A stretch of DNA of 32,000 bases from Schaalia odontolytica (lineage in GTDB: Bacteria > Actinomycetota > Actinomycetes > Actinomycetales > Actinomycetaceae). The stretch spans positions 1,650,001 to 1,682,000 of the forward strand of contig NZ_CP040006.1 in NCBI RefSeq assembly GCF_005696695.1, in the 5' to 3' direction. Positions 3,218-19,995 of the stretch are shown in pieces (within the stretch, counting starts at the first letter, position 1; every line of letters begins with the position of its first letter). Position numbers and translations under genes: made by a program. The notes beneath the pieces were generated by a model. The model saw only the letters and a program-made list of their open reading frames with translations, searched no databases and was not told where the DNA came from.

Positions 3218-3715
3218 TCAGCCGACGAGCTGTCCCGACTCGTTGAAGTAGTACCACTTCCAGCCGATCCAGTGACCGCCGGTGTACATCGCTCCCGAGT
3301 CGGTGCTCAGGTAGTACCAGAAGCCGCCATCCTTCAGCCAGCCGGTGGTCAGCGCGCCGCTGGGGGCCATGTAGTACCAGGAGGAACCATCCTTCACCCA
3401 GCCGGTCGCCATCGCGCCGCTGCCGGGCGTCAGGTAGTACCAGGTCAGCCCATCGAGGATCCATCCCGTCACCATCTGTCCGGTCGTCGGGTTCAGGTAG
3501 TACCAGGAGGAGCCGTCCTTCACCCAGCCGCTCGCCTGAGCGCCAGACAGATTGTGGAAGTACCACGCGCCATCCTCACTCGCCCAGCCGGTGCGCATGT
3601 AGCCATCCGCACCAAAGCGGTACGTGGAGTTGCCGATCTGCACCGTCTGGCTCACCGGGTAGGTGCCATCCGCATAGCGGTACCACCAGCCGACGGAGTC
3701 GCTGATCCACTGGCC
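3218..3715 (-). repeat. Cell-wall-binding repeat array (about 60-nt period)
   Basis: Encodes about 9 GW/WYY repeats (GWVKDGSSWYYLNPTTGQMVTGW...), with the same periodic ggtagtaccag signature as 187-625. Confidence 0.75.
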
Positions 3716-6700
3716 ACCCTGCGGGGCGGGAGCCGGATCGGGCTCAGGCGCCGGAGTCGGGTCCGGCGCGGGCGTCGGGTCCGGCGCGGGCGTCGGGTCC
3801 GGCGTCGGCTCAGGCGCAGGCATCGGATCCGGGGTACCCGGCAGCTTGATCATGAGGGCGCTCGTCAGGTAGGAGGCATCACGCACCTGGACGCGCAGGC
3901 TCACGTCCACGGCGGACGGGGTCCACGGGAAGGTCACGGAGGAGGCCGCAGCTCGGTCCCCGCCGTCCGTCACCGTCGTCCAGTCGCGCACGAGGGTCTC
4001 GGTGCCGTCTGCGCCGATCTGCACGGCTCGGACCTGCTGTGTGCCGGCGATGCCACCGGCAACCGTCGCGGTCACGTCGACCGACGCGCCGACCTCGCCC
4101 GTGTACGTGTAGCTTCCCCCGGCCTCGTTAATGTTGGCACCCGCCAGGGTCATCGACGCGCCCGTGTAGGTGTGCAGGTGGGAGGCGTCGATGCCGGCCG
4201 CCTCGAGGGCGTCCTTGGCGACATTCCACGCCGGCTCACCCTCGGCTGCGGCAACGTAGACGTGGGTGTCATCCTTCTTCTCGTCGCTCAGCTCAGGCTC
4301 GAGGTCGAGTCGGGTGAGCGTGGAGGGCAGGACGAGGACGCGCGGGACGTCCACGCCGAAGGACACGCGGGTCATGCCCTCGCCGAAGTAGGCGCTCTGG
4401 CGGCGTCCGTTCGTCGGGCGACCGTCGTACACGAAGGAGCCGTCCACGCCGCCGCGCACGACGATGCGACGAGGCATGGGAACCCAGCTGCCTTCCATGC
4501 GGATCGAGGTCACCTTGGAGCCGTACTCGACGAGTTCTAGGGAGTTTCCGGTGACGCCGCTCGAGCGCTCGACCGACTCGGGGATGACGAGCTCGGTGAG
4601 GGCCGTGGTGCCCGCGAAGGCGTCGTCGCCGATGACCTTGAGGCCCTCGGGCAGGACGACGCGGGTGAGCGTCTTGTTGTTGGCGAATGCCGTCGCGCCG
4701 ATCTCGACCGTGCCCGCGCGCACCGTGTAGTCGGTGAGCGTGTTGGCGGCCGGGGACAGCATCAGGTGCAGGCCGTCGTCCGCCTTGCGATACAGGACGT
4801 TGTGCTCGGCCGAGTACACCGGGTTGCCATCCACAACGGTCAGCGTCGCGATCTTGCGGTCGTTGTACAGGGCGGTCTCGGCGAAGGAGGTGACGCCCGC
4901 TCCGATGTGGAACGAGGTCAGGGCCGTGCTCTCCGAGAATGCCTGCTCGCCGACCGTGGTCACGGAGTCCGGCAGGGACACCGAGGACTGTGCCGTGCGG
5001 CTAAACGCGAAGTCGCCGATCGTGGTCAGGCGGCCGAGCTCGGGCCGGAAGTTGACGCCGGCCTTGGCGCTCGTGGACTCAAACGCGCTGCCGCCCAGGG
5101 AGATCGTGCCGCCCAGGTCGATGCTCGCGAGCTTGTCGGCGGAGCAGAAGGCGCAGGTGCCGACCGTCTCGAACTTCTCGGGCAGGGTCACAGCGGTGAG
5201 CGCGGAGAGGCGGAAGGCCTCGTCCTTGATCTCGCGCAGGCTGTCGGGCAGCGTCACAGTCGTGATGCCCGCCTTCTGGAATGCCTTGGGCGCGATCGTC
5301 GTGACACCGTCCAGGACCGTGTACGTGCCTCCCGTGTTCTTGGCGGCCGGGTACAGGATGAGGCGCGAGTGGTCCTTGGAGTACAGGACTCCGTCAACGC
5401 TCTCGTAGTTCGGGTTCGCGGGATCGACCTCGACGCTGGTCAGCGCGGCGGTCTCGGCGTAGCCCGAGGTCACGGAGTCGGCGGCGACGTTGGGGCCCAG
5501 CTTGATCGTGGTGAGCGCCGAGTTGTAGTCGAAGACCTCCGCGCCGATCGTCACCACGGAGCGCGGCAGCTCGATGGCCTCGAGGCTCGTGTTCGCGAAC
5601 GCGCGGTCGGCGATCGTGGTCAGCTGGGCCGGGTGGGCCTCGTCGTCGACGAAGGTGATCTTCTTCAGCGAGCTGTAGATGAAGGCCTCCAGGCCGATCG
5701 AGCGCACCGAGGCGGGGACCGTCACGGACTCCACGGTGGAGCTCGCGAAGGCACGCTCGCCGATGGAGGTCACGGTGTCGGGCAGGGTGACCTCGGTGGC
5801 CGAGCCCTTGTACTTGACGAGGACGCCGTCCTCGCTGATCTCGAAGTCGTCGGCATCGGCGGAGCGCACCGTGACGGGGATGGACGCGGTCTTGGCCGCG
5901 CCGGCCTCGGTGGTGACGGTGGCGGTCAACGTTCCGGAGCCCGCGTGATCGCCGGCGGTCAGGGTCGCCTTGCGCGTATCCGTGTCGGCGGCGACCGTGG
6001 CCAGGTCGGCAGGCTCCACGCTCCACGTCACCGCGCGGTCCTTCAGCGAGGGCGCCAGGTAAGCCTTCACGGGAGCGGTCTCGCCCACCTTGACGCTCAC
6101 CTGGTTGTCGGCGAGTTCGATGCCCGCATCCTCGGAGATCGTGCGCACGCGGATCTGGGCGCTGGCCGACAGGGTCGGCTGAGACGCGTCGGTCGCGGTG
6201 ATCGTCGCCTCGCCGGCGGCCAGGGCGCGGACCTCACCGTTGTCGTTCACGGTGGCCACGGCCTCGTTCGAGGACGTCCACACGAGGTCGGTGACGTTCG
6301 CGTTCGCCGGCTCGTAAGAGGGGCTCAGCGTGACCGTCTCGCCCGCGACGACCTCGGAGTCCTGCGGGGTGAGCGCCAGGGAGGTCATCGGGATCGTGCT
6401 GAAGCGGATCACCTGGCGGGCCTGGTTCTTCCCCCAGTCCCAGGCGAACAGGTAGGCGGTCGCCGGATCCGAGGAGTCCGCGCGGTCGATGAGGTCGGTC
6501 CACTTGATCTCGTAGTGCTTCGCGTAGGTGCCGTCGGCCTGACGGTTCGCGCCCACAGCCTCCTTCTCGTCGTAGTAGCGACGAGAGGTCGGGGACTCGG
6601 AGAAGGCGATGCCGGCCAGCGGCGAGTTGTCGGTGACGTCGAAGGACACGACGCGCTCGTCGCCCTCGCCGGTCACCGTCAGGTTGGAGATGACGGGCGC

Positions 6701-9700
6701 CTGGGTGTCCAGGGTGAAGTCCCAGGTCAGCTGCGAGGAAACGCTCGAGGGCGCGACCGAGGCCGCGTCGATCGTCAGCTTGTAGCGGCCCGCGGGCAGC
6801 TCCTTGCCGTCCTTGTCGAAGCCGTCAAAGACCGGGTTGTTGCCCTCCTGGCTTTCGATGGGCTCGACCTTGCTGGCGTGGTAGTTGAACAGGGACTTGC
6901 GGGCGCGCTCGAAGGTGTACTCACGCACCACCTCGCCGGCCTCGTTCGTGTAGGTGTAGGTCACCTTCGGCGAGTTACGCAGCAGGCAAGTGCGCGGCAG
7001 GATGCGCGAGGGGGCCTCGGGCAGCGCGGAGCGGGACATGATGAAGTACGCGGGGTCGACCGCGCGCACGTCATCGAGTTCCTGTCCGGCGAGCGGGTTC
7101 AGGGCGCCCAGGGGCACCTCGGTCGCGGGGTTGATGAGGGTAGAGGAGCAGGCGTGCGCGGTGCTCGTCGTGCCGTCGTACCACTTGCCATCGAAGACGG
7201 CAGGCGCGCCCCAGGAGCCGTAGAAGCCCATGTAGGGGACAGTCAGGTCGGGCTGACCGTCGGCGCTCGTGAAGGTCACGGCGCCGTCGATGAACGTGCC
7301 CTTGGGAGCGTTCTCATTCGCGTACGAGGCGAAGGCACCCTGCGGGGTCACGGTGACGGTCACGGTCGCGGTGCTCTTTGCAGGCACGGTCACCGAGTCA
7401 GCGGAGTAGGTCAGGTCGATGCCCTGCCCCGCCCAGTTCTTGGAGTGCTCGGTGAAGAGGCCCCCCTCGACGATCTCGGAGAGCGCCTGGCCGCCCAGGG
7501 TGTACGTGTGGTCGGCGTCGGAGATGTTCGTCAGGGTCACCTGGAAGGTCCACCCGTTCGTGCCCTCGCCCAGGTCAGCCTTGGGACGCCACGGGTTTTC
7601 CGCGCCCGCGACGCTCGGGTAGACGGTCGTGGTCGTGGCTGCGAGGGCGTCCACCTGGCCGGCGCCCACGCGGCGCGGCGAGTAGTAGGTGCCGTCGTTC
7701 TGGTCGATGTCGAGCAGCGGGTGGGCGGTGCCCATCATGAGGGTGGTGACGATCGCGGCCTTGTCTGCCTCCGACAGGCCGGCGAATGCCGGGTCGTTGT
7801 TGACGCGCTGGCGCACGAGGGTCGCGATGCCCGCCACCTGCGGGGTCGCCATGGACGTGCCCGACATGGAGCGGTACGTGTTGCCCAGGACAGCCGCGAC
7901 AATGTTACCGCCGGGGGCCGCGATCTCAGGCTTGAGCTTGAGGTCGGGCGTGACACCCCACGAGGTGAAGTCGGAGACCGACGGGTTCGTCGAGGCGAGC
8001 TTCAGGCCCGCGTGAGGGTTGGAGATCGTGATGGAGCCGGACTCACTGGCCTTGATAGCCTCGATGAGCGCGTCCTTCTCTTTCTTCGTGATGGTCACGG
8101 TCGGCATCGTGTGGGTGGCCTCGATGGTCGCCACGTAGGGGTTTTCGACCGTCTCGGAGTCACCGATGATGAGGGCGGCGGGCTTGGAGGTCAGCTGGGT
8201 CAGGCCCTTGACCTTGGCCTCGTGGGTCATGTCCGCGCCCGTCGCACTGTCGGAGCCGCCGCGGTCTTCGAGGACGATGACCTGAGAGAGGTCTCCGGGG
8301 TGCTCGGCGACGAGCTTGCTGAGGGCTGCCGCGTCACCGATACCCGCGTAGACGAGGGTGTAGGTGCCCTCGGGGATGTCGAGGAGGCTCGGCACGACGG
8401 CATCCTTGAGGCCGCGCGACTTGCGGTAGACGACCTGGCGGTCCCCCACCGTCAGGTAGGGTAGGGCGTCCTGGTTGTTGACCGAGGCGACGGCCAGGGT
8501 CGAGCTGTAGGACCCGGGCTCGGAGACCGTGCCGGCGTCGGGGTCGGTCGCGTAGGGCTTGTTTCTGCCGCTGTAGTTGGAGTACGCGCTCGAGTAGGAG
8601 TTACCCGCAGCGGCGTTGACCGTCACGCCGGCGGCGGCGAGGTTCTTGTAGACCTCCGCGTACATGGTTCCGGCCTCGGTGCCCATACCCGCGTCCTCGC
8701 CGAGGGAGAGGTTGATCGAGTCGGGCTTAATAACGACCGCGTCGTCGAGGGCCGCCAGAACAGTGTTGTCGGGGATCGATCCATCCTTGTCGGAGGCGAC
8801 CTTGGCGACGATGATCTGCGCGTGGGGCGCGGTGCCCTGCAGGTCGGCCGCGTTGGCGGCAGCGATCGCGGCAACGTGGGTGCCGTGCGACAGGTCCTTG
8901 CTGGACTTGGGCAGCACGTCCGCGTCGTTGTCCGCGTAGTCGAAGACAAAGGGGATCTTGCTGTTGAGGTAGGCGCCGGTCTTGCCGTGCGGCAGCTTGC
9001 CGACGAGGGCCTCGACGTCCCCCTGGCTCAGGCGCACGTCGACGCCATCCATGGAGCCGGAGAACGCCTGGTGGGTGGCCTCGATGCCTGTGTCGATGAC
9101 CTCGACGACCTGACGATCACCCTTCTGGGTGGTCTGGTTGGCGCGCGTCATCTCCAGGGAGGAGGCGTTTTGCAGGGCGGGATCCACGGCCTCGGCACCG
9201 AGTGCGCCCGCGTCCCCCTCGACGACCATGGGCTTGTGGTGGCGCTCGATGAACGCAGCCTTGACGCCCTCGGTCGCCTTGATGGCATCCAGGGACGAGG
9301 CCGGGGCCTGGATTGCGAAACCGTCCAGCGCGTGCGTGTAGTCGCGCACGTCGGTGATGTCCGCACCGGGGACCACTGCCTCGACCGAGGTTTCGATGCG
9401 TTCCTTGACCGTCTCGTGCTTGGTCGAGGACGACAGGCCGAAGACCCGCTGGTACCACGGGATGCCGACCGAGCCGTCCTCGAGCTGGACGATGATCGTC
9501 GTCGGGGTGTCGTCGGCGGGGACGCTCTCGGGGGTGGTGGTCGGGTTCTCGGCCCCGGCCTCGTCGGCGGCTCCCGACTGCGGGGTGCCGGACTGGGCGT
9601 CGACGGACGAGGCGGGGGCGGGGGTACCCGACTGGCTTTCCTCGGGGCTGTTGGCCGCGAAAGCCGCCGGGGTGGTCACGGCGGTCATGGCAAGGGTGCC

Positions 9701-9742
9701 CGCGGTTAGCAGCACCAATGCCGAGGTTGTGCGATGGGACAT
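3218..9742 (-). CDS. Giant cell-envelope subtilisin-like serine protease (peptidase S8) fused to Big_2-like, BspA-type LRR, Pro-rich linker and cell-wall-binding repeat domains
   Basis: 2174-aa ORF with a signal peptide and an I9-like propeptide (TIIVQLEDG...DGFAIQAP). The catalytic triad was verified on the DNA: Asp217 in VIDTG (9092-9094), His286 in SHGTHVA (8885-8887), Ser630 in SGTSMATP (7853-7855). A PA-like insert lies between His and Ser. Two Big_2-like segments follow (VTLSPSYEPANANVTDLVWTSSNEAVATV). The C-terminal half is paralogous to the 872-aa neighbour. Confidence 0.9.
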   Translation of the reverse strand: MSHRTTSALVLLTAGTLAMTAVTTPAAFAANSPEESQSGTPAPASSVDAQSGTPQSGAADEAGAENPTTTPESVPADDTPTTIIVQLEDGSVGIPWYQRVFGLSSSTKHETVKERIETSVEAVVPGADITDVRDYTHALDGFAIQAPASSLDAIKATEGVKAAFIERHHKPMVVEGDAGALGAEAVDPALQNASSLEMTRANQTTQKGDRQVVEVIDTGIEATHQAFSGSMDGVDVRLSQGDVEALVGKLPHGKTGAYLNSKIPFVFDYADNDADVLPKSSKDLSHGTHVAAIAAANAADLQGTAPHAQIIVAKVASDKDGSIPDNTVLAALDDAVVIKPDSINLSLGEDAGMGTEAGTMYAEVYKNLAAAGVTVNAAAGNSYSSAYSNYSGRNKPYATDPDAGTVSEPGSYSSTLAVASVNNQDALPYLTVGDRQVVYRKSRGLKDAVVPSLLDIPEGTYTLVYAGIGDAAALSKLVAEHPGDLSQVIVLEDRGGSDSATGADMTHEAKVKGLTQLTSKPAALIIGDSETVENPYVATIEATHTMPTVTITKKEKDALIEAIKASESGSITISNPHAGLKLASTNPSVSDFTSWGVTPDLKLKPEIAAPGGNIVAAVLGNTYRSMSGTSMATPQVAGIATLVRQRVNNDPAFAGLSEADKAAIVTTLMMGTAHPLLDIDQNDGTYYSPRRVGAGQVDALAATTTTVYPSVAGAENPWRPKADLGEGTNGWTFQVTLTNISDADHTYTLGGQALSEIVEGGLFTEHSKNWAGQGIDLTYSADSVTVPAKSTATVTVTVTPQGAFASYANENAPKGTFIDGAVTFTSADGQPDLTVPYMGFYGSWGAPAVFDGKWYDGTTSTAHACSSTLINPATEVPLGALNPLAGQELDDVRAVDPAYFIMSRSALPEAPSRILPRTCLLRNSPKVTYTYTNEAGEVVREYTFERARKSLFNYHASKVEPIESQEGNNPVFDGFDKDGKELPAGRYKLTIDAASVAPSSVSSQLTWDFTLDTQAPVISNLTVTGEGDERVVSFDVTDNSPLAGIAFSESPTSRRYYDEKEAVGANRQADGTYAKHYEIKWTDLIDRADSSDPATAYLFAWDWGKNQARQVIRFSTIPMTSLALTPQDSEVVAGETVTLSPSYEPANANVTDLVWTSSNEAVATVNDNGEVRALAAGEATITATDASQPTLSASAQIRVRTISEDAGIELADNQVSVKVGETAPVKAYLAPSLKDRAVTWSVEPADLATVAADTDTRKATLTAGDHAGSGTLTATVTTEAGAAKTASIPVTVRSADADDFEISEDGVLVKYKGSATEVTLPDTVTSIGERAFASSTVESVTVPASVRSIGLEAFIYSSLKKITFVDDEAHPAQLTTIADRAFANTSLEAIELPRSVVTIGAEVFDYNSALTTIKLGPNVAADSVTSGYAETAALTSVEVDPANPNYESVDGVLYSKDHSRLILYPAAKNTGGTYTVLDGVTTIAPKAFQKAGITTVTLPDSLREIKDEAFRLSALTAVTLPEKFETVGTCAFCSADKLASIDLGGTISLGGSAFESTSAKAGVNFRPELGRLTTIGDFAFSRTAQSSVSLPDSVTTVGEQAFSESTALTSFHIGAGVTSFAETALYNDRKIATLTVVDGNPVYSAEHNVLYRKADDGLHLMLSPAANTLTDYTVRAGTVEIGATAFANNKTLTRVVLPEGLKVIGDDAFAGTTALTELVIPESVERSSGVTGNSLELVEYGSKVTSIRMEGSWVPMPRRIVVRGGVDGSFVYDGRPTNGRRQSAYFGEGMTRVSFGVDVPRVLVLPSTLTRLDLEPELSDEKKDDTHVYVAAAEGEPAWNVAKDALEAAGIDASHLHTYTGASMTLAGANINEAGGSYTYTGEVGASVDVTATVAGGIAGTQQVRAVQIGADGTETLVRDWTTVTDGGDRAAASSVTFPWTPSAVDVSLRVQVRDASYLTSALMIKLPGTPDPMPAPEPTPDPTPAPDPTPAPDPTPAPEPDPAPAPQGGQWISDSVGWWYRYADGTYPVSQTVQIGNSTYRFGADGYMRTGWASEDGAWYFHNLSGAQASGWVKDGSSWYYLNPTTGQMVTGWILDGLTWYYLTPGSGAMATGWVKDGSSWYYMAPSGALTTGWLKDGGFWYYLSTDSGAMYTGGHWIGWKWYYFNESGQLVG
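3756..3809 (-). repeat. 18-nt tandem repeat x3 encoding the (PAPDPT)n linker
   Basis: gtcgggtccggcgcgggc occurs at 3756-3773 and 3774-3791, with a variant copy at 3792-3809. These translate on the minus strand to PDPTPAPDPTPAPDPTPAPEP. Confidence 0.85.
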
Positions 9743-10057: not shown

Positions 10058-10378
10058 TCAGAGAATAACCGCAGTGCCCGTCGCGATGGCGGCGAGCATG
10101 CCGTTGTTGGTGCCGGCGGTGAAGTAGTCGACCTTCACGCCGACGACCGCGTTGGCGCCCATGGCCTGGGCGCGGGCGCACATTTCATTGACGGCGGTTG
10201 CGGAGGCACCGCCGATCTCTTCCTCGTACTGGGAGGCGCGGCCACCGAACATGTTGGACAGGTTTGCACCGAAGTCCTTGAACATGTTGACGCCGGAGAT
10301 CGCCTCGCCGGAGACCATGCCGATGTACTGCTTGACGGGCGCGCCCTCAACGGTCGGGGTCGTCACAACGAGCATCAT
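10058..10378 (-). CDS. YbjQ/UPF0145-family protein (putative heavy-metal-binding domain)
   Basis: The 106-aa ORF has the family-typical pattern: TTPTVEG..V.QYIG.VSGE...G.N.FKD......N.FGGR...YE......A...M...A...GANAVVGV..DY. Confidence 0.8.
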   Translation of the reverse strand: MMLVVTTPTVEGAPVKQYIGMVSGEAISGVNMFKDFGANLSNMFGGRASQYEEEIGGASATAVNEMCARAQAMGANAVVGVKVDYFTAGTNNGMLAAIATGTAVIL

Positions 10379-10593
10379 TCACTCCTTCATAGGGGGTTAA
10401 CGTGGCAACACTACCCGCGATCCCGTGCGTAGGCTAGTAGGCGCTCATCAACTGATTGGCTCAGTTGGTCGCCGCACCCGTTTGCTGCGTTGAAGCGAGC
10501 CCCTTTGAGCCGCCACGGCGCTACCATTCGATTCATCATTCCATCCGGGTGCAGCGGCGCGCCCGGCGACTTGTGCGGAGCGATGCCACGAAG

Positions 10594-10664
10594 ATGCACG
10601 TTTACGGGTCCGTCGGGCAGAAGAGTCCCACCGTCCTCATCATTCACCCGATGCTGTCCTCGGC
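10594..10664 (+). pseudogene. Orphaned 5' fragment of the alpha/beta-hydrolase gene (MHVYGSVGQKSPTVLIIHPMLSSA...)
   Basis: Compare MQLHVYGPCGHDCPTVLIIHPMLSSA at the start of the intact gene (12397). The last 38 nt are identical to 12436-12473. The reading frame runs into low-GC DNA and stops at 10689. Confidence 0.7.
10627..10664 (+). repeat. Left copy of the 38-bp perfect direct repeat
   Basis: cccaccgtcctcatcattcacccgatgctgtcctcggc, identical base for base to 12436-12473. Confidence 0.95.
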
Positions 10665-12435
10665 ATCACTGCCACTGACAAGCCCATAACAACTCAAACA
10701 ACACCACAATTCAGTGAATCTATACATACTACTCCTCCTGATAACACCACTTACCATTCTCATCAATACTCATAGACCAATAAGCCATCTTGGCGATAAT
10801 CTTATCCAAAGCTGTCGAAACATAACTCCGAATACAAGAATCAAAATCAACTTTCGCAACGTGCAACGCAAGAAGCCTAACAATAAGCTTACTAAGATCG
10901 CATACTACAGTAACTTCACGACCGTCCGGAAAACTACCACGACTCGAATGCTTGATAGCGTTATACGTATTTGCAATTGCCCTCGACAAGGCAACCATGC
11001 CACCGAATTCACTCGACAGCTCCAGCTCCAGAACACGCAAACACCGAAAAATACACAATGATACTGGAAGATTCCTTCCCCTACCTTTCAAACATTCCTC
11101 ACCAACACACTCACCAATCAGCTCACCGGCTGCTTCCATACTCATCGCCGTTGAGAGAATGACATCTTCAGCAAATACACCTTCACGACCAAGAACATTC
11201 ACGCTCGGGAGAATAAAACGTTCCCACTTCTCATACTCAGCACTCCATACTTCCATACCTCCTACACCGACCATCTGGAAGTTAGCGAGCGGATCGTTCA
11301 ACTTATCACGACTAGGGACATCACGGACAGAATCGGCAAAAGTCCTAGAACTAATAAGCTGGATACGCGGCTTGATCGGATCTTCCCTACTAGGAAGAGT
11401 AAAAGAAAAGCGTTCATCACGGAGAGCATGACGCCGAATGAACAATTGCCGCCCATACATGAATGTCATTAAATGACGCACCTTCTGCTGCTCACGATAG
11501 TGATCATCAAAACTCCTCGGACCTGAACGAAAAGAGCTAACCAATGACACATCATCAGCAATCAGCACTTTTCGCTGATACCCGTCAGATTCAGACACCT
11601 CTGACCAAATCGATTGAATCCGCATGTTCGTGTCGCCCTGCACCCACTCAAACACTATTTCTGACTTCACCTTTAGCTTAAGCTCATTTGCAATATTCTT
11701 CTCATCTACCAAAGGTTCAATACTCACAGCACTCAAGCCCGACCAGGCATTCAGGCCATCAATCCAGCTATATAGTTCATCTATAACAAGAGGGTCTTCA
11801 AAACACCCATTACGCGATTCAAGTACTGCGACTGAGGGCCGGAGCTTACCAACCGAAGCCTTCCAAGCGCCAAATGGCGCACGATGGCCCAGCCACACGA
11901 TACCAAATAAGCCAACAGCCCCTTCTGGGGTAAGTAGCTCCATATTTGTCGGTGCTTTCCGCGATTCAAACCAGTGTCGAACATGATCAAACTGCCCATC
12001 ATCCGCGCCCTGCAGATATGGCACCTCAACCACAAGACCGCGGCGACGGTCCATCTTTATTGTCGCTCCAACCCACGGCGTACCCTTGACACCATCGGCA
12101 AGTAGGCCACTAATACTGTCCCCAATTTCTAACTGAAAGTCGCTCATACGGAAATCCTACACACATTAACTACTTGTCTGTTAGAAAATAAGCAGATTAT
12201 TTTTGACCACAGTCCCATTACACGAGTACCACCCTTAAACACGTTCCGTGTCAAATCAGATCTACCACAACATATCGCAACATTCTGAGTTCATATAACT
12301 GGAATCACTTAGGAGGGAAAACCATTGACACGCCCATACCTTGTTACACTTATGCCATCCCACTAACTCACGCATATTCATGTCAATTCCATCGCAATGC
12401 AACTACACGTCTACGGTCCTTGCGGGCACGACTGC
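10665..12435. mobile_element. Low-GC insertion cassette (single-gene genomic islet) with no recombinase
   Basis: Composition drops abruptly. Sampled 60-nt lines give about 37-47% G+C, versus about 65-70% in the flanks. The segment lies exactly between the two copies of the 38-bp direct repeat and holds one 472-aa ORF plus 249 bp of AT-rich upstream DNA. Confidence 0.6.
10729..12147 (-). CDS. Hypothetical 472-aa cytoplasmic protein, candidate ApeA-like/HEPN-type defence protein (unverified)
   Basis: This is the only long ORF in the low-GC cassette, with no signal peptide or TM segment. The N-terminal start (FQLEIGDSISGLL...GTPWVGATIKMDRRRGLVVEV) resembles my recollection of ApeA N-terminal domains. 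The C-terminal helical part contains NTYNAIKH, and R-x4-6-H strings occur mid-protein. The assignment is from memory only. Confidence 0.7.
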   Translation of the reverse strand: MSDFQLEIGDSISGLLADGVKGTPWVGATIKMDRRRGLVVEVPYLQGADDGQFDHVRHWFESRKAPTNMELLTPEGAVGLFGIVWLGHRAPFGAWKASVGKLRPSVAVLESRNGCFEDPLVIDELYSWIDGLNAWSGLSAVSIEPLVDEKNIANELKLKVKSEIVFEWVQGDTNMRIQSIWSEVSESDGYQRKVLIADDVSLVSSFRSGPRSFDDHYREQQKVRHLMTFMYGRQLFIRRHALRDERFSFTLPSREDPIKPRIQLISSRTFADSVRDVPSRDKLNDPLANFQMVGVGGMEVWSAEYEKWERFILPSVNVLGREGVFAEDVILSTAMSMEAAGELIGECVGEECLKGRGRNLPVSLCIFRCLRVLELELSSEFGGMVALSRAIANTYNAIKHSSRGSFPDGREVTVVCDLSKLIVRLLALHVAKVDFDSCIRSYVSTALDKIIAKMAYWSMSIDENGKWCYQEE

Positions 12436-13182
12436 CCCACCGTCCTCATCATTCACCCGATGCTGTCCTCGGCCTCGAGCATGAAGGCCTCGCTCTGCGA
12501 TCACATGGGTCCCGGACTGCGTTTCCTCGTGCCGGACCTGTCCGCCCACGGGGACGAGGCCTCGGCCCCCTACGTGTCGGCGGCGGCGGAAGCGGGGGCG
12601 ATCCACGAGTGGCTGGCCTCCCACGGGGTGCGTCGCCTATCGCTGGGGTTCGCGGCGTCGCTCGGAGGGGTGATCCTGTTCGAGCTGCTCCGGTACCCGG
12701 ACCTCTCGTTCGATCGACTGTTCATTGAGGGGGTGAGCTTCTACTCGGGCGGTCCCGTAGCCCGAGTCGGCGGGGCCGTTCTCAGCCGGGTGATGGTCGC
12801 TAAGCACCGGAAGGCCGCGCGGGATCCCGAGGCCGGGGCACGCAAGCTCGCACGCCTCTACGGCGAGGAAGCTGCACGCTCGATGGTCGCTAGTTTTGCA
12901 GCGATGAGCGAGGAGAGCATCCGCGCGATCGTGCACGACTGCTCGCATGTCAGCCTGCCGCCCCTCTCCCCCGCCATCCAGCGGCGCTGCACGTTCGCGT
13001 ACGGGGAGAAGGACTCGGACCTGCGGCTCGCGCGCCGCGTGATCCCTCGCCTCTATCCGGAGGCCGAGCTGCGCGTCTGGCCCGACTGGGGGCACTGCGA
13101 GCGCATGAGCCGGGACTCGGTCGCCTACGGGGCGATGCTGCGGAACGTCGCCCTGGGCTCGGCATCTACTGATCGTTCGTGA
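12397..13182 (+). CDS. Alpha/beta-fold hydrolase
   Basis: 261-aa ORF with an oxyanion-region VLIIHPMLSS, a nucleophile-elbow-like FAASLGG, and a C-terminal WPDWGHC (His of the triad). Confidence 0.75.
   Translation: MQLHVYGPCGHDCPTVLIIHPMLSSASSMKASLCDHMGPGLRFLVPDLSAHGDEASAPYVSAAAEAGAIHEWLASHGVRRLSLGFAASLGGVILFELLRYPDLSFDRLFIEGVSFYSGGPVARVGGAVLSRVMVAKHRKAARDPEAGARKLARLYGEEAARSMVASFAAMSEESIRAIVHDCSHVSLPPLSPAIQRRCTFAYGEKDSDLRLARRVIPRLYPEAELRVWPDWGHCERMSRDSVAYGAMLRNVALGSASTDRS
12436..12473 (+). repeat. Right copy of the 38-bp perfect direct repeat
   Basis: Identical to 10627-10664 and lies inside the N-terminal coding region of the intact hydrolase gene. Confidence 0.95.
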
Positions 13183-13792
13183 AGGAGGCGATCACGCAGG
13201 GAATTCGACCTCGCACGACGCGGTAGGTGACGCCCGTGCAGCCCATACGCTCAAAGAACGCCCGGTAGGACACCGGGTCGAAGTGCTCCTGGAAGTGCAC
13301 GCCGAATCGGGAGATCACCCTCAGGAACATGGTGTGCGCCCGCTTCTTGGGAATCGCGTAGGTGGGCACGATGATCGTGCCACCCGGGCGCACGACCCGC
13401 TTGAGCTCCTTGAGCGCGTCGCCCGGTTCAGGCAGCAAGTGGATAACGTTGCCCGCCACGACGGCGTCAAACGAGTCGTTCGCGTAACGCAAGTCGGTGA
13501 TATCCGCCTGCTCGACGGTGACGTTCGAGTGTTTCGCGAGCTTCTTGCGTGCCTGCTTGAGCATCCCCTCGGAATAGTCGGTCGCGACCACACGCGCACA
13601 TGCGGGGGCGATGGCGGCGCTAATCGCGCCCGTTCCGCACGCACATTCGAGCACGGTGTCACCGGGGCGAATCAACCTGGCAACGGCACCGCCCGTCCCG
13701 TCATACACCCTCCTGTTGAGCGCGTTGACGGCGAGGTCGTAGAGCGGGGCAACTCGATCCCAGAACAATGCTGAACACCTCCGTATTCCCAT
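13166..13792 (-). CDS. Class I SAM-dependent methyltransferase
   Basis: 208-aa ORF with motif I VLECACGTGAIS, followed by VVATDYSEGML and a Methyltransf_11-like core (FDAVVAGNVIHLLPEP...LKRVVRPGGTIIV). Confidence 0.8.
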   Translation of the reverse strand: MGIRRCSALFWDRVAPLYDLAVNALNRRVYDGTGGAVARLIRPGDTVLECACGTGAISAAIAPACARVVATDYSEGMLKQARKKLAKHSNVTVEQADITDLRYANDSFDAVVAGNVIHLLPEPGDALKELKRVVRPGGTIIVPTYAIPKKRAHTMFLRVISRFGVHFQEHFDPVSYRAFFERMGCTGVTYRVVRGRIPCVIASFTNDQ

Positions 13793-14817: not shown

Positions 14818-16494
14818 TCAGCCCTCCCCCTTCACCAGCACGGCCTCGGCCTTCTCTCCGAGCCACGCGCGCAGCGTCTGGATGCCGCCCGACAGCATGG
14901 TGACGTTGAAGCCCGCGTGGCGCACGATGCGGTAGCCGATCCAGGAGCGCACGCCCGCCGCGCACATGACGACGAAGGGCTGGTCGCCGACGTTGGTCTC
15001 GACCCAGGCGCGGACTTCATCGAGGCGGTCGCGAAGCTGGGTGTGGGGGATGTTGAGGGAGTTGGGCATGTGCCCGGCCGCGTACTCCCCCACGGTGCGC
15101 ACATCCAGGACGGGCATGTCCTCGGTGAGAGCGTCTGGGCCAGTCAGGACGAGCTCGCCGGTCAGCACGTTGTGGGCGACCATGCCGGTCTGGTTGACGG
15201 GGTCCTTGGCCTGGCCGTAGGGCGGCGCGTAGGCGAGGTCCAGGTCGATGAGGTCCATCGCGCTCAGGCCCGCTCGCATGGCGGTGGCGATGACGTCGAT
15301 GCGGCGGTCTACGCCGTCGACGCCCACGGCTTGCGCGCCGAGGATCGCTCCGTCCGTACCCACGTGCATGAGGATGTGGACGGGCTTAGCACCGGGGAAA
15401 TAGCCCGCGTGCTGGTTGGCGTGCGTGTGCACCGTGAAGTACTCCGTGCCCGCCGCGTCCAGGGTCGCACGGTTAGCGCCGGTCATCGCGGCTGTTAGGC
15501 CGCCGATCCGAACGATCGCGGTGCCCTGGGGGCTCGGGATGGGGCGCGCGGTGGCCTCGCCGTGCTGCGCGTCAGCGATCACGTCGGCGACGAGGCGTCC
15601 CCCGCGGTTCGCGGGTCCAGCCAGGGCGACGGGGCGGTCGTGATCGCGGCCGACCGTGCCATCACCGACCGCATAGACGTCGTCGGCGCTCGTACGCCCG
15701 TGCTCGTCGACGAGGATGTAGCCGCGGCTGGTCTCGATGCCCACGGCCTCGGCGAAGGCGGTGTCGGGGCGGACTCCGGTCGACAGGACGATGATGTCGG
15801 CAGCCAGCACGGTGCCGTCGGAGAGCGTCACGGAGTCGTGGTCGTCGCCGTGGGTGATGGACTGGGCGGCGACGCCCGCATGGACGTGAACGCCGAGGGC
15901 GCGCAGCTCCTGCGTGACCAGCGTGGCCATCTCGACTTCGAGGGGCGGCAGGACATGTTCGGCGAACTCGACGAGGTGGGTCTCGAAGCCGCGATGCGCG
16001 AGGGCTTCGGTGGCCTCGATGCCGATGAACCCGGCTCCGAGGACGACAGCTCGCGCGCCCGAGGCCTCGCGCAGGGCGAGAGCGTCGTCGACCGTGCGCA
16101 GGGTGTGCACGCGCGGGGAGTCGAGGCCGTCGATCGGGGGCCGGCTCGCGAGGGCACCCGGGGAGAGGATCAGGTGGTCGTAGGTGAGTGTGTAGGCCTC
16201 GCCGGTCTCCGTGTCGGTGACCTGGACGCTATGTGCAGCCGGGTCGATCGCGATGACCTCGGAGTTGATGCGCACATCGAGGTTGAGCGCAGCCTTGAGG
16301 GTGTGCGGGGTGTGGAGGAGGAGCTTGGCGGGGTCTTCGATCTCGCCGCCGACGTAGTACGGGAGTCCGCAGTTCGCGAAGGACACGTACTTGCTGCGCT
16401 CCAGCACGATGATCTCGGCGCCCTCGTCGCGCCTGCGCAGGCGTGCCGCCGCGCTCATGCCACCCGCGACTCCTCCGACGACAACTACTCGCAT
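14818..16494 (-). CDS. CoA-disulfide reductase / NAD(FAD)-dependent pyridine-nucleotide-disulfide oxidoreductase with C-terminal rhodanese domain
   Basis: 558-aa ORF. It has the FAD motif VVVVGGVAGGMSAA, the redox Cys motif SFANCGLPYY, and the NAD motif AVVLGAGFIGIE. The C-terminal rhodanese domain has the active-site loop CAAGVRS. Confidence 0.85.
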   Translation of the reverse strand: MRVVVVGGVAGGMSAAARLRRRDEGAEIIVLERSKYVSFANCGLPYYVGGEIEDPAKLLLHTPHTLKAALNLDVRINSEVIAIDPAAHSVQVTDTETGEAYTLTYDHLILSPGALASRPPIDGLDSPRVHTLRTVDDALALREASGARAVVLGAGFIGIEATEALAHRGFETHLVEFAEHVLPPLEVEMATLVTQELRALGVHVHAGVAAQSITHGDDHDSVTLSDGTVLAADIIVLSTGVRPDTAFAEAVGIETSRGYILVDEHGRTSADDVYAVGDGTVGRDHDRPVALAGPANRGGRLVADVIADAQHGEATARPIPSPQGTAIVRIGGLTAAMTGANRATLDAAGTEYFTVHTHANQHAGYFPGAKPVHILMHVGTDGAILGAQAVGVDGVDRRIDVIATAMRAGLSAMDLIDLDLAYAPPYGQAKDPVNQTGMVAHNVLTGELVLTGPDALTEDMPVLDVRTVGEYAAGHMPNSLNIPHTQLRDRLDEVRAWVETNVGDQPFVVMCAAGVRSWIGYRIVRHAGFNVTMLSGGIQTLRAWLGEKAEAVLVKGEG

Positions 16495-16664
16495 GTGCGG
16501 CTCACTTTCTGGCTCGAGGACGGGTCTTCTTCGACTGCTCTGAGGATACTCCCCCGCGTTTGGATTAGTGCCCCTATGCCAACCTCGCTTGATCTGACCT
16601 TAAACCGAATCGCGGCGCGGATTCATAGGTCGGGACAATGAGCGCACATCACGAACACGGTAAC

Positions 16665-16691
16665 GCCCCGGGCACTAAACGCGTCCGGGGC
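16665..16691 (-). terminator. Possible terminator hairpin after the nuclease-like gene
   Basis: gccccgg / ccggggc 7-bp stem with a 13-nt loop, just past the stop at 16699. Weak. Confidence 0.25.
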
Positions 16692-16698
16692 ATCACCG

Positions 16699-17784
16699 TC
16701 AGGCCCAGCGTTGCGCAGCCTCGCGGATTTGATCCACATACTGATAGATGTCTTCGACCGAGTTGATGTTGTAGCGTTCCTCAGTCTTATCTTCGTTGAC
16801 GAACGCAATCACCTTTCGGCGACCGAAGTAGCACCGAAGAATCGGACGCCGATTATTGTCGTCAGCAAGGACGGAGAAGTAGGAACGCACGTCACGGTAG
16901 GTGATGCGTTCAAACGGCAGTTCAGCACACGCAATGGCCTTCACGATCCGATAAGCAGCGAGCTCCTCCTCGGTTGTTTCAATACCATCTGACACTTCCT
17001 CGACGTGCACCTCTTCGTTAACTTCTTCTTCCACATCATCGGGTACCGGCATCACCGTGTTCACATCCGCACCCAATGCACTCTTCAAGCGATCATTGAT
17101 CCGTTCATTGAGGAACTGGCGAAGAGCTTTGTCCGTGATCACAGTGAACTTCTCCAGGACCTGCTGCGTCACACGCCCTTCGTAGACACGTGAGGCAAAA
17201 AGCCTCACGAAGTCCGCAGAAGGCTCTTTAAACTCCATGCCCACTTCACGCTTGATCGCTCCGAGATACTTGAGCTCCTCCGCAGCACTCACGATCGACG
17301 TCAGATCGAAACGTTCCTTCGTGAGCTTCCTCAGCTCAGGCAGGAAAGTCTCATCAATATCCGCAAGATCCAAAACCAAGAAAGGCCTTGAATCCATGAC
17401 ATTGGGGGCATCAAGGTCCGTGTAGAAGTTATAGACACGGCCGTTGGTGAGCACCGCAATTCGCGCTTTTGTCACTGAGAAGTATCGGTACAGCTGAGCG
17501 GCATGCTCAGGTGTAAGGTCACCGGCAACTTTCTTGCATTCGATGAGAATCCGAACCTCACCACCATCCATGATGGCGTAGTCAACCTTTTCGCCGCGCT
17601 TGGTACCAACATCCGCCGTGAACTCGGGTACAACCTCTTGCGGATCGAAGATGTCATAGCCGAGAACAGTTGAGATGAATGGAAGAATGAACGCGGTTTT
17701 CGTTGCTTCTTCAGTTTCGATGTTCTCCCACTGGTCAGCAACCTTGCCAGCCAGGAGGGTAAGAGCGTCTTCAAAGGCCACCAT
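16699..17784 (-). CDS. Orphan HsdR-N-terminal-type PD-(D/E)xK nuclease-domain protein
   Basis: 361-aa ORF in a lower-GC stretch. The N-terminus matches the type I restriction R-subunit N-terminal nuclease pattern (EEATKTAFILPFI...KVDYAI...VRILIECKK...YFSVTKARIAVLTNG..Y.FY). An acidic linker and an uncharacterised C-terminal domain follow. No HsdM or HsdS gene, and no helicase, is nearby. Confidence 0.7.
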   Translation of the reverse strand: MVAFEDALTLLAGKVADQWENIETEEATKTAFILPFISTVLGYDIFDPQEVVPEFTADVGTKRGEKVDYAIMDGGEVRILIECKKVAGDLTPEHAAQLYRYFSVTKARIAVLTNGRVYNFYTDLDAPNVMDSRPFLVLDLADIDETFLPELRKLTKERFDLTSIVSAAEELKYLGAIKREVGMEFKEPSADFVRLFASRVYEGRVTQQVLEKFTVITDKALRQFLNERINDRLKSALGADVNTVMPVPDDVEEEVNEEVHVEEVSDGIETTEEELAAYRIVKAIACAELPFERITYRDVRSYFSVLADDNNRRPILRCYFGRRKVIAFVNEDKTEERYNINSVEDIYQYVDQIREAAQRWA

Positions 17785-18020
17785 TGACTCCTTGTTGAAA
17801 TACGTGAGCTTCCTCTATAACTCTAATCACACTTTACCTATGTATGTCAAGTAAGCTAGACAGCTCGCCACAGAACCGCTTCGACAGCACGCCATAGCCA
17901 TCACCGCAGTTTGGTAGGGCCCCACACAAAAACTAGGGCATACCTTGGTGTGTGTCACGCACGCGTGTCACGCAGCAAGGCATGCCCCGTTTTACCGCAG
18001 AATCATGCGGTTTTTGTTGT

Positions 18021-18042
18021 GGAGATGGGGGGAATCGAACCG
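18021..18042 (-). other. tRNA/tmRNA 3'-end-like fragment (T-loop plus acceptor strand), candidate prophage att core
   Basis: The minus strand reads GGTTCGATTCCCCCCATCTCC-A, i.e. a T-loop, a T-stem 3' strand and a 7-nt acceptor 3' strand. The upstream 60 nt do not fold into a cloverleaf by hand: the T-stem pairs only 2 bp, the acceptor pairs 5/7, and the best anticodon hairpin has an 8-nt loop. Confidence 0.4.
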
Positions 18043-18108
18043 AAGGCCCCTAATCGCGCCCGAAAGTGCGCGCGCGGGTCATCGTGCGCCACTACAGCAC
18101 CACAAAGT

Positions 18109-18634: not shown

Positions 18635-18937
18635 CTATTCCGGAGAGGCTTCGTCCGCGAGGCGGCGCTCCGCCTCGGCAGCTACATCGGAGCCACTGAC
18701 TCCGAGAGCTTCGCACATCGCACCGAAGTCGCTCATCGTACAAACAGTGTCGCCCGCGAAGATCTTGTAACAGCGCGCGCGAGTGATGCCGGCCCGCTCG
18801 GCCAGGCGGTCGATAGTCAGGTCCAGACTTTGCAGACGCTCCTTGAGTACAGCTAAGACAGCGCGTTCAAAGGGACTCGATTTAAGAGATCTGCTTCCCA
18901 TGAGGTAAGCATATCTACTTTTGTAGACCCATGTCAC
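18635..18937 (-). CDS. XRE/cI-like HTH repressor
   Basis: HTH segment LTIDRLAERAGITRARCYKIFAGD. The gene is divergent from a Cro-like gene. The start is ambiguous: GTG at 18937 or ATG at 18901, with no obvious SD, so the transcript may be leaderless. Confidence 0.7.
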   Translation of the reverse strand: MTWVYKSRYAYLMGSRSLKSSPFERAVLAVLKERLQSLDLTIDRLAERAGITRARCYKIFAGDTVCTMSDFGAMCEALGVSGSDVAAEAERRLADEASPE

Positions 18938-19003
18938 ATGAAAACGAGTTGCAAAATCTCTATTTGTAGACTTATATAGCAGTCATTGGTCTACAAATGT
19001 AGA
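18917..19003. promoter_or_regulatory. Operator-like repeats in the repressor/Cro divergent region
   Basis: TTTGTAGAC occurs at 18920-18928 and 18963-18971, with the inverted copy GTCTACAAA at 18989-18997. The palindrome TCTACA-AA-TGTAGA spans 18990-19003, in an AT-rich stretch. Confidence 0.55.
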
Positions 19004-19016
19004 AAGGAACCATGAG

Positions 19017-19340
19017 ATGACGGTCGCAGCCGTAATCAAGAGCATGGCCCGTGAGCTGGGCATCTCTCAGACAGAGCTTGCTGCCCGCGCTCGTATGAGC
19101 CGCGCGAGCCTGTCCCTCAAGCTCAACGAGCGCCGAGATCTGACCTTGCCGGAAGTTGAGAGGCTCGCAGCAGTGCTCGGCACGTCCGTCCGCGAGCTCC
19201 TCGACCAAGTCGAGCGCACCACCGAGACAGCACCCGCGCCCGATAAATCGCGAGGCTATGCAATCGCCGATAAGGCGACCGGCGTCGTGATCCTCCAGGC
19301 CTCGCACGGAAGCATCTACGACGAGGACATCCCGGCATGA
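19017..19340 (+). CDS. XRE-family HTH protein (Cro/antirepressor-like early regulator)
   Basis: 107-aa ORF with the HTH LGISQTELAARARMSRASLSLKLNERRDLTLPEVERLAAVLG and a GAAAGGA RBS 8 nt upstream. Confidence 0.75.
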   Translation: MTVAAVIKSMARELGISQTELAARARMSRASLSLKLNERRDLTLPEVERLAAVLGTSVRELLDQVERTTETAPAPDKSRGYAIADKATGVVILQASHGSIYDEDIPA

Positions 19341-19522
19341 GCGCCGTCGTCGCAGTGACCATCGGCCTAGTTCTCGCGGTCGCCGCAATACCTGTCATCG
19401 TCTGCGTCGTATACCTCACCGGTATCTACGCAGGGGATGCGCTCGACCGCCTCGTTTGTATGGGCCTCGACGCGGGTGATCGGATCGCCGAAATGATCGA
19501 TGGGGAGGTGCCCGGGAAATGA
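19337..19522 (+). CDS. Small membrane protein
   Basis: 61-aa ORF with an ATGA overlap with the upstream stop and one TM helix (VVAVTIGLVLAVAAIPVIVCVVYL). Confidence 0.5.
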   Translation: MSAVVAVTIGLVLAVAAIPVIVCVVYLTGIYAGDALDRLVCMGLDAGDRIAEMIDGEVPGK

Positions 19523-19740
19523 CCGCCGCTGCACCGTTCGCCCCTGACCGCTGGTACTCAGCCCAGCAGGTTCAGGAAACCCTCAGCCTCTCCCGCTCAA
19601 CCGTCGAGCGCCTCGGAGTCGAGGGCAAGGTCGCCGCAATCAAGATCGGGCGTTCCGTCCGGTACAGCGGCGACGACCTCAACCACCAGTGCCAGAGCCT
19701 CGGCTCCTGCGCCACCGAAAAGAAGAGCTCCCAGCGGTAG
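19519..19740 (+). CDS. Excisionase-family (MerR-superfamily) helix-turn-helix DNA-binding protein
   Basis: 73-aa ORF with WYSAQQVQETLSLSRSTVERLGVEGKVAAIKIGRSVRYSGDDL, the typical HTH_17/Xis pattern, and an ATGA overlap. Confidence 0.7.
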   Translation: MTAAAPFAPDRWYSAQQVQETLSLSRSTVERLGVEGKVAAIKIGRSVRYSGDDLNHQCQSLGSCATEKKSSQR

Positions 19741-19761
19741 AAGCGCTGGGAGCGAGCAGAA

Positions 19762-19775
19762 CCCCTAGAGAAGGA
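19762..19775 (+). promoter_or_regulatory. Start-associated 14-nt motif CCCCTAGAGAAGGA, copy 1
   Basis: Ends 7 nt before the GTG at 19783. An identical 14-mer lies at 22580-22593, 6 nt before the ATG at 22600. The motif contains the GAAGGA RBS. Confidence 0.5.
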
Positions 19776-19782
19776 AGATTCC

Positions 19783-19995
19783 GTGAACAAGACTACCACA
19801 CGCCGCCGCCACCTGCGGCCCTGGCGAACCCTCATCGGAGGCGCCGCACTCGCCGCCGCCCTCACCCTCGGTTTCGCGATGCGCGGCCTCGACAACCCCG
19901 ACGGCCTCCCCGAGTGGACCTTCTTCCCGGCCCTCGGACTCCTCGCGCTCGCGGTCTGCTTGATCCGCGCGGACTGGAAGGCAGGGCGGCTGTGA
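19783..19995 (+). CDS. Small membrane protein
   Basis: 70-aa ORF with a GTG start. It has a basic N-terminus and two hydrophobic segments (LIGGAALAAALTLGFA, FFPALGLLALAVCLI). Confidence 0.5.
   Translation: MNKTTTRRRHLRPWRTLIGGAALAAALTLGFAMRGLDNPDGLPEWTFFPALGLLALAVCLIRADWKAGRL

Follow-up and report, generated by a model that had tools for sequence, protein, structure and literature searches.

A 1809-nt unit carrying one convincing gene, an ApeA-like gene, interrupts the 5′ end of an alpha/beta-hydrolase gene in Schaalia odontolytica and supplies that gene with a replacement start. We analysed it within a 32,000-nt stretch of the chromosome (NCBI RefSeq assembly GCF_005696695.1, contig NZ_CP040006.1, positions 1,650,001 to 1,682,000 of the forward strand), referred to here as the window and numbered from its first base. 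The cassette has moved recently, as a precise unit, between strains about 10% divergent from one another, and neither the cassette nor its immediate neighbourhood contains a recombinase gene. The account we favour, to which we give a probability of roughly 0.6 as a whole, is that of a recombinase-less cassette with an ApeA-like cargo that is exchanged through a short conserved segment of the hydrolase gene, most likely by RecA-type homologous recombination. The unit would then be a minimal accessory cassette at a variable hotspot of oral Schaalia and Pauljensenia (the Actinomyces odontolyticus group). Comparisons were made with about 60 related Schaalia/Pauljensenia loci; loci are denoted L001, L005 and so on, and those relatives that have names belong to Schaalia, Pauljensenia and Actinomyces of the human mouth.

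The insertion is bracketed by a perfect 38-bp direct repeat (CCCACCGTCCTCATCATTCACCCGATGCTGTCCTCGGC), hereafter the core. A preliminary description, made from the sequence alone, had placed it at 10627-10664 and 12436-12473, and these are exactly the two copies in the window; no further copy was found across the window at 3 or fewer mismatches, and 0 of 100 shuffles gave a match. Ungapped extension of the repeat reaches 71 nt (10597-10667 and 12406-12476) at 83% identity, and the 38-mer is the core of a duplication of about 80 nt that covers hydrolase codons 1–26, with homology spanning the start codon to GGC[A/C]TC. The left copy lies in a stranded hydrolase 5′ end, or stub (codons 1–26; 10588..10667, plus strand), composed of a variable part (10588-10626) and the conserved core (10627-10664), with homology stopping at 10667. 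Upstream of the stub is the native, high-GC intergenic region between a YbjQ gene and the hydrolase (10379..10587, plus strand), and the earlier suggestion that the left copy is a gene start stranded behind native DNA is borne out by its collinearity with empty-site genomes: positions 1-607 of an empty-site reference align without a break to window 10061-10667. The nearest relative of this intergenic region is that of L018, an empty-site locus (93.6%). The region presumably contains the promoter and ribosome-binding site that first served the hydrolase, now cut off from the gene body. In the window the first codon of the stub is ACG, not ATG (10588-10590; the native start in relatives is MKMHVYG...), a change private to this strain that is missing from near-identical strains and from all other loci, and an open reading frame (ORF) from the stub ATG at 10594 would give MHVYGSVGQKSPTVLIIHPMLSSASLPLTSP followed by a stop codon.

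The mobile unit starts at the left junction and ends with the last base of the right core (10665..12473, equivalently 10627-12435). Its left non-coding end, past the ApeA stop codon (10668..10728, minus strand), begins with a junction sequence, ATCACTGCCAC[T/C]GACAAGCCC, common to the window, L005 and L006, and faintly resembles the region downstream of an ApeA paralogue in L008 (29 nt, 79%). It is followed by the ApeA-like gene (10729..12147, minus strand, 472 aa), a divergent AT-rich intergenic region of 249 bp (12148..12396) and the replacement hydrolase 5′ end (MQLHVYGPCGHDC + PTVLIIHPMLSSA; 12397..12476, plus strand), in which the right core occupies 12436-12473. Here starts the intact 261-aa hydrolase ORF (12397..13182, plus strand), as the preliminary description had read it. 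The compositional contrast it had pointed to is also real, with a GC content of 0.45-0.49 over 10801-12400 versus 0.60-0.72 for most of the window; taken between the repeat copies, GC is 45-48%, compared with 65-70% in the surrounding DNA.

The two copies are not equally alike along their length. Upstream of the core they mismatch at 12 of 33 repeat positions, and these positions overlap codons 4–13 of the hydrolase, which lie just 5′ of the core and are hypervariable among alleles. The variants seen at window positions 12406-12435 and in related loci include GPGGQES, GPCGQDC, GAVGQES, EPGGENS, GPSEEET and GDYGDDS, among others. The core itself codes for PTVLIIHPMLSSA and is nearly invariant in all hydrolase alleles; its third-position diversity is 0.054, compared with a gene mean of 0.183 (placing the core at about the 6th percentile) and 0.28 for the first 13 codons, and yet it is not the gene minimum, other parts of the gene being equally conserved. 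Because the core is nearly invariant and codons 4–13 are hypervariable, a run of 38 perfect bases beside 33 diverged ones does not speak for recency, and the perfect identity is best read as two different alleles of one gene start, with no mark of recent duplication. The start supplied by the cassette (MQLHVYGPCGHDC) closely resembles a natural PCGQDC allele, and the cassette 5′ end is itself a PCGQDC-type hydrolase allele, not an unrelated mimic.

These observations bear on the possibility that a transposon-like insertion made a long target-site duplication, or that the arrangement is an assembly artefact. Direct repeats do bracket the insert, but copies that differ at 12 of 33 positions upstream of the core, the left one varying with the host background, argue against a duplication made by insertion, and the cassette has neither terminal inverted repeats nor a transposase. 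More than 20 independent assemblies also show the arrangement, and one of them (L166, GCA_001462375.1) is an isolate genome with a contig identical to the window. On the divergent copies and the recurrence in assemblies we reject both the duplication and the artefact, each of which we regard as highly improbable.

Evidence for recent transfer comes from comparing the cassette with its flanks. In every window-type locus the core-to-core distance is exactly 1809 nt. Relative to 13 other loci with an identical or near-identical ApeA, the window cassette has 0-7 differences in 1732 nt, and the flanks of those 13 loci belong to at least five other backgrounds, which diverge by 5-18% in the intergenic region, 10-31% in the variable part of the stub and 7-14% over the body of the hydrolase; YbjQ is 11% different in one of these backgrounds, and the DNA further left 29%. 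The unit is 99.6-99.9% identical across backgrounds that are 7-29% divergent. L169 illustrates the sharpness of the transition: its cassette differs at 1 of 1732 nt, while YbjQ differs at 36 of 321, the intergenic region at 23 of 209 and the hydrolase by 7-9%. Over 10629-12473 there is a single difference, the last mismatch on the left falling at core position 2 (10628) and the first on the right at 12474, the first base past the right core. Stub alleles vary across backgrounds that share the same cassette; the replacement 5′ end moves with the cassette and shows 0-1 differences among backgrounds. In the window, both flanks are closest to L018, which is empty, and the cassette is 99.7% identical to that of L005, whose flanks differ. 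The hydrolase is accordingly a chimera of cassette-borne first 26 codons and a resident body closest to L018, not to the loci that share the cassette.

Uninterrupted alleles, which the preliminary description had proposed to seek in related genomes, were found and match precisely. When 1809 nt are removed from L165, the result is 99.83% identical to the empty loci L180/L181 over 3000 nt, with 5 mismatches and 0 gaps, through the junction. We also rebuilt the native protein of each occupied locus by fusing the 5′ end of its stub to its own hydrolase body, and searched for exact matches to the product. The protein reconstructed from L005 was found exactly, as P0167, read on 13 contigs; of the six P0167 loci shown, five lack the cassette and place YbjQ about 212 bp away from the hydrolase, whereas in the sixth, L178, the gap is longer and there is a small extra ORF. 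The L167 reconstruction comes within 3 of 261 residues of a native-type protein, P0087, which has the same rare MKMNVYGAVGQES start and whose locus, L177, is empty. Because the reconstructed empty alleles match real empty loci, the gain or loss of the cassette is recent and exact to the nucleotide. Direct repeats derived from the target bracket the element and precise empty sites exist, as is expected of a site-specific element.

A single ancient insertion inherited vertically, with mosaicism produced by recombination of the flanks and purifying selection on the cassette, would account for part of what is seen. The cassette architecture is old and confined to this locus. Every relative of the cassette protein with 66-67% to 99% identity is encoded here, beside the hydrolase. 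The stub ends at +80/+83 in every relative whose contig reaches far enough. Lineages with ApeA proteins 93%, 83%, 75% and 66-67% identical can be distinguished; in the distant ones the stub is progressively decayed, at 78-82% nucleotide identity, whereas the window-type lineage retains an intact native allele there. The locus also recombines heavily, the hydrolase being mosaic. Selection on the cassette, however, cannot make non-coding and synonymous sites identical, as in the 1 of 1732 nt that differs between backgrounds 7-29% apart outside the cores; within a single background, 0.17% separates the occupied version from the empty one, and identical cassettes are flanked by different intact native stubs. 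Near-identical cassettes in divergent backgrounds, together with the occupied/empty pair, largely refute purely vertical inheritance, which we consider improbable. A 'decayed' element, as the preliminary description had also entertained, is unlikely too, the same minimal architecture being kept from 100% down to 66-67% ApeA identity. In L038-L041, which carry an 83% identical ApeA, about 76 nt of the stub match the intact copy at every position outside codon 2, with two further differences in L041; in the window lineage identity extends only over 38-41 nt. The L038-L041 pattern points either to gene conversion that made the two copies alike or to insertion into an allele that already matched.

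We next consider where the shared tracts end. In pairwise comparisons, most pairs break at both cores. Two pairs, L165/L167 and L175/L124, however, stay matched for another 450-570 nt into the right flank, and in L165/L171 the left flank is shared in full (more than 400 nt), with a break at the right core only. Variants within the core put the left crossovers between core positions 2/8 and 30. In L175 the two cores are reciprocal, the left having T at 8 and A at 30 and the right C at 8 and G at 30; this is the pattern expected of a crossover within the core, and it is predicted by homologous and site-specific models alike. Homologous recombination is favoured because tract endpoints vary, some lying hundreds of bases into one flank. 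Of the three mechanisms put forward in the preliminary description (a decayed or minimal integrative element, a satellite mobilised in trans and a homology-flanked variable cassette in a defence hotspot), variable tract ends and the lack of mobility genes point to the last.

The strongest competitor is an att-only integrative cassette, comparable to a cis-mobilizable element (CIME) or a satellite, in which the 38-41-bp segment would be the attB/attP core for a site-specific recombinase whose gene lies at another place in the genome or on a helper phage or integrative and conjugative element. Acting in trans, that recombinase would excise and re-insert the 1809-nt circle, and the element would keep only its att site, cargo and replacement 5′ end. 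The architecture is exactly that of islands that enter a gene and restore its 5′ end, such as the dusA-specific islands (PMC4482086). The constant length of 1809 nt, the tracts that mostly end in both cores, the reciprocal core variants of L175, a target strictly confined to one locus and the reduced synonymous diversity of the core (0.054 against 0.183) all fit as well, and phage or mobile-element genes are present 6-16 kb downstream in the window. Against these stand the several tracts that run well past one core, for which extra homologous-recombination events would be needed, and a core that on inspection has no convincing inverted-repeat core-site structure. Its conservation is explained equally by its coding for PTVLIIHPMLSSA, other gene parts being just as conserved at third positions, and no circle junction occurs in the fetched loci. 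In agreement with the preliminary description, no integrase, transposase or terminal inverted repeat was found in the cassette; nor was a recombinase found among the genes called next to it in those related loci that are annotated, or in the tested ORFs of the window, which reach up to 28.6 kb. An att-only cassette is, in our judgement, unlikely.

No vehicle was apparent. Phage searches gave no match, and the sole IMG/VR match is the same chromosomal locus, with no phage carrying the cassette; plasmid homologues are only 39% and 26% identical, in Arthrobacter and Pseudarthrobacter. A metagenome scan by the 17-nt left junction, a short pattern, recovered the cassette in 1 of 120 loci screened (L124). 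Rfam detected no RNA gene in the cassette, and ARAGORN detected no tRNA or transfer-messenger RNA (tmRNA) in the window.

The site of insertion is a variable hotspot, since different cargos occupy the YbjQ–hydrolase interval in other genomes. Its left border is a gene for a 106-aa YbjQ-family protein (10058..10378, minus strand; Pfam YbjQ_1, E=8e-31), which adjoins the hydrolase in both empty and occupied loci. On the other side, a class I S-adenosylmethionine-dependent methyltransferase gene (13166..13792, minus strand; Pfam Methyltransf_11, E=4e-26) adjoins the hydrolase in all loci. With the hydrolase as anchor, the site was uninterrupted in 13 species-representative genomes, YbjQ being about 210 bp from the hydrolase ATG, and the distance from YbjQ to the stub in the window equals that from YbjQ to the hydrolase in empty genomes. 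The variable cassette in a defence hotspot that the preliminary description had raised is one of several states of this spot, which may be empty or hold the ApeA cassette, an ApeA paralogue, an NYN-domain protein, a GyrI-like protein or an unknown pair. The inserts other than the cassette replace about 140 bp of intergenic DNA, without duplication. They comprise the ApeA paralogue, 41% identical and without a stub (L008/L017/L031); a 243-aa NYN-domain protein (L027/L029/L030/L042/L184); a GyrI-like protein (L006/L029/L033/L037/L042); and a low-GC pair of 276 and 233 aa (L001, 4125-5969). L006 and L042 have alternative cargo alongside a stub-type ApeA cassette. Decayed stubs hidden in the stub-less inserts were looked for and none was present; the stub architecture is found at this spot with the ApeA cassette only.

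The cargo was examined by profile and structure searches. The 472-aa protein matches Pfam ApeA_NTD1 (PF18862) with 33.3 bits against a cut-off of 25.5 (E=4.8e-8), as do 23 of 23 aligned relatives (best 2.4e-12). A second family, HEPN_Apea (PF18739), is reached only below threshold (14.9-16.5 bits against a cut-off of 24.4), in a match centred on an invariant motif; weak matches at E<0.1 occur in 5 of 23 relatives, the best at 2.6e-4. The domain layout is a beta-rich N-terminal ApeA_NTD1 followed by a helical C-terminal domain that may be HEPN-like, and in an AlphaFold 2 model (predicted local distance difference test score 87.7, predicted template modelling score 0.86) the C-terminal half is all-helical. 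The invariant motif, A-x2-Y-N-x2-K-H-x2-R, covers residues 392-403 (Y395-N396-x-x-K399-H400, R403). PADLOC gave no family at E<=1 for the window protein and one unrelated weak match among the 23 relatives, and NCBIfam gave no match for the cassette protein. Solved structures were not matched significantly, either by sequence search or by Foldseek of the model against the PDB; with the N-terminal domain, Foldseek returned only weak Hcp/tail-tube-like beta-barrels (E about 0.05-0.2).

The ApeA family was first defined in PMC3710099, and ApeA has been shown experimentally to be a single-gene HEPN tRNA-anticodon nuclease that acts by abortive infection (bioRxiv 10.64898/2026.01.26.701840). The cassette protein resembles ApeA (PMC3710099; bioRxiv 10.64898/2026.01.26.701840, 10.64898/2026.03.20.713152) in its above-threshold ApeA_NTD1, in a helical C-terminus with a weak HEPN_Apea match and in being a solitary gene within variable, AT-rich accessory DNA. 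By homology, the ApeA-like cargo is probably an anti-phage nuclease of the HEPN type that would act by abortive infection. The two are distant kin only, however: PADLOC does not recognise the protein as ApeA, the HEPN_Apea match is below threshold, and at 472 aa it appears shorter than E. coli ApeA. Canonical ApeA has a catalytic Arg, numbered 502 and 521 in the E. coli proteins (for example R502 of Ec2ApeA), in an R-x4-6-H motif, whereas all 23 sequences of the cassette clade have a Tyr five residues before the His (YNxxKH), a motif that does not conform to the canonical HEPN pattern. This actinobacterial ApeA-like clade may have a variant active site, or may have lost RNase activity.

The re-capped gene encodes an intact alpha/beta-hydrolase, whose homologues have Pfam Abhydrolase_6 and one of which is named 'alpha/beta hydrolase' by NCBI. 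The preliminary description had supposed that the cassette brings its own replacement hydrolase 5′ end, and the 261-aa ORF is indeed intact in all cassette-bearing loci, so that the replacement is functional at least at the level of the ORF. The 249-bp region at 12148..12396 contains no conserved ORF across cassette variants. It does contain blocks conserved among cassette lineages (ATCTACCACAACATA.CGCAACA, CTTGTTACACTTG and TATTCAT), which are consistent with putative divergent promoters, one directed leftward to ApeA and one rightward to the re-capped hydrolase. A sigma-70 scan found nothing in 12148..12396, and sigma-70 and terminator scans performed below shuffle expectation. The orphaned native promoter now faces the 3′ end of ApeA in antisense.

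Taken together, these results can be assembled into a mechanism in which the cassette inserts at nucleotide +80/+83 of the hydrolase, where its own gene start of about 80 nt rebuilds the ORF and the native start is left as a stub. The 1809-nt unit is gained, lost and exchanged among strains and also among lineages about 10% divergent, most likely by recombination in the 38-41-bp hydrolase segment. Two routes can be envisaged. In the first, a repeat-to-repeat crossover would loop out an 1809-nt circle and restore the native gene, with Campbell-type re-insertion as the reverse step; the expected circle junction is GCGGGCACGACTGC + the 38-nt core + ATCACTGCCAC, and the excision product is the stub 5′ end + the core + CTCGAGCATGAAGG. 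In the second, imported linear DNA would recombine by a double crossover, the core being the first usable homology beside the heterology.

Several observations weigh against this account. In most pairs both tract ends fall inside the 38-bp block, tighter than random endpoints of homologous recombination would be, even though YbjQ, 98% identical over 321 nt in several pairs, offers far more homology only 250 bp away; tract ends at the cores are also the expected product of a site-specific recombinase. The passage of a non-replicating 1.8-kb circle between cells is left unexplained. A circular or tandem junction (cassette 5′ end, core, cassette left end) was seen in 0 of the 185 fetched loci, although assemblies seldom show rare circles. 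L185, a Logan contig of about 1.9 kb, is the integrated form and ends exactly at the right core end, probably an assembly break at the repeat. The promoter of the re-capped hydrolase is putative, and inspection revealed no clear Shine-Dalgarno sequence before the new ATG; for the defence role, the missing PADLOC and solved-structure matches and the invariant Tyr at the position of the catalytic Arg are adverse. A bolder version of the account, in which the 1809-nt unit is a mobile, recombinase-less 'att-plus-cargo' defence module, complete with defence gene, promoter region and an 80-nt mimic of the target gene, that excises as a circle and re-inserts into the 38-41-bp hydrolase segment in further strains and species by host RecA or a borrowed recombinase, is one we hold only tentatively. 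If true, it would define a minimal class of mobile element whose sole 'mobility function' is a copy of the 5′ end of its target.

Comparison with known systems places the cassette between two groups. Like the islands and prophages inserted by dusA-specific integrases (PMC4482086), it enters the 5′ coding part of a gene, supplies a new 5′ end and leaves the gene intact, with the displaced 5′ end remaining as a direct-repeat stub and with precise empty sites. Those elements are 10-100 kb in size and move by their own tyrosine integrase and att sites, whereas the cassette is 1.8 kb long, has one cargo gene and no recombinase, and shows tract endpoints that are partly variable. In the presence of alternative cargos at one position, bounded by an unchanging pair of core genes, it resembles the minimal mobile elements of Neisseria (PMC3787668, PMC3082526) and the defence hotspots in the core genomes of P. 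aeruginosa and E. coli (PMC10250203, PMC10121019), which likewise lack mobility genes and exchange their cargo through homologous recombination of conserved flanks. The other inserts at this spot (ApeA paralogue, NYN, GyrI-like and unknown pair) behave exactly as this minimal-mobile-element type, without duplication. In the hotspot systems, however, the cargo lies between genes and none is duplicated; the cassette interrupts the hydrolase at +80, copies its first ~80 nt and recombines in a 38-41-bp block instead of kilobase flanks, which would make precise loop-out possible. Integrase-less satellite islands are represented by the satellite tycheposons of Prochlorococcus (bioRxiv 10.1101/2020.12.28.424599). 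The cassette, as att-like repeats plus cargo without its own recombinase, is comparable to CIMEs, integrase-less satellites and integrative mobile elements exploiting Xer (IMEX). All of these have att-like repeats and cargo, lack a recombinase of their own and need functions in trans, host XerCD in the case of IMEX; they use tRNA/tmRNA or dif sites and have a demonstrable recombinase partner. The cassette core, in contrast, is neither dif-like nor tRNA-like and has no known recombinase partner. The cassette thus combines the anatomy of gene-restoring islands, minus the integrase, with the population behaviour of integrase-free hotspots.

Other features of the window lie outside this locus. To the left are genes for two large surface proteins, both on the minus strand (187-2805, 872 aa; 3218-9742, 2174 aa), with BspA-type LRR_5 and choline-binding cell-wall repeats; orthologues of the 2174-aa protein also have S8 peptidase, fn3_5 and Big_2 domains, and the 3′ ends of the two genes have about 270 nt in common at 71% identity together with ten copies of a 60-63-nt repeat. 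To the right, a CoA-disulfide-reductase-like gene with a rhodanese domain occupies 14818-16494 on the minus strand. A sub-threshold Rfam match to V_AS7, a Vibrio antisense RNA (16307-16475, plus strand; 45.8 bits against a gathering score of 90, E=2.5e-6), is antisense to the 5′ end of a pyridine-nucleotide disulfide oxidoreductase gene and is probably spurious, an effect of base composition.

A second low-GC patch (0.51-0.53) at 16550-18016 contains a 361-aa gene (16699-17784, minus strand) with HSDR_N / PD-(D/E)XK-like nuclease domains. The patch is missing in L018 and L038, which have about 97 nt instead, and is present at 84% identity in L041 and L009. We tried it as a repeat-bracketed cassette and rejected this, no bracketing repeat being found; it is a replacement-type variable region, unlike the ApeA cassette. 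At its right border lies a tRNA/tmRNA-like 3′ end (TGGAGATGGGGGGAATCGAACC...; 18017-18101, minus strand), single-copy in the window, which scored only 10.8 bits with the Rfam tmRNA model (gathering score 47) and was not called by ARAGORN; it may be a remnant attachment site. Beyond it, a phage/mobile-element-like cluster (18635-28623) includes a divergent pair of cI/Cro-like helix-turn-helix genes (18635-18937, minus strand; 19017-19340, plus strand), a C5 cytosine DNA methylase (23775-25121), an HNH endonuclease (26560-27606) and an HTH_17/MerR-like gene (27709-28623). This cluster could be part of a prophage or island with a recombinase outside the window.

Defence genes turn over rapidly at hotspots, and for many of those without mobility genes homologous recombination is only assumed. 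The cassette described here is an unusually clean case, in which a one-gene unit is 99.9% identical in genomes about 10% divergent, breakpoints fall in 38 bp and an exact empty allele exists in the same background. Its spare 5′ end shows how an insertion within a gene becomes harmless, and the direct repeats would allow precise loss and possibly re-insertion. The clade of the cargo, a divergent actinobacterial branch of ApeA-like proteins that have Tyr where the catalytic Arg would be expected, is of biochemical interest in its own right. If the unit does cycle as a circle without a recombinase of its own, it would provide a minimal model for the movement of defence genes in naturally recombining oral Actinomycetaceae.

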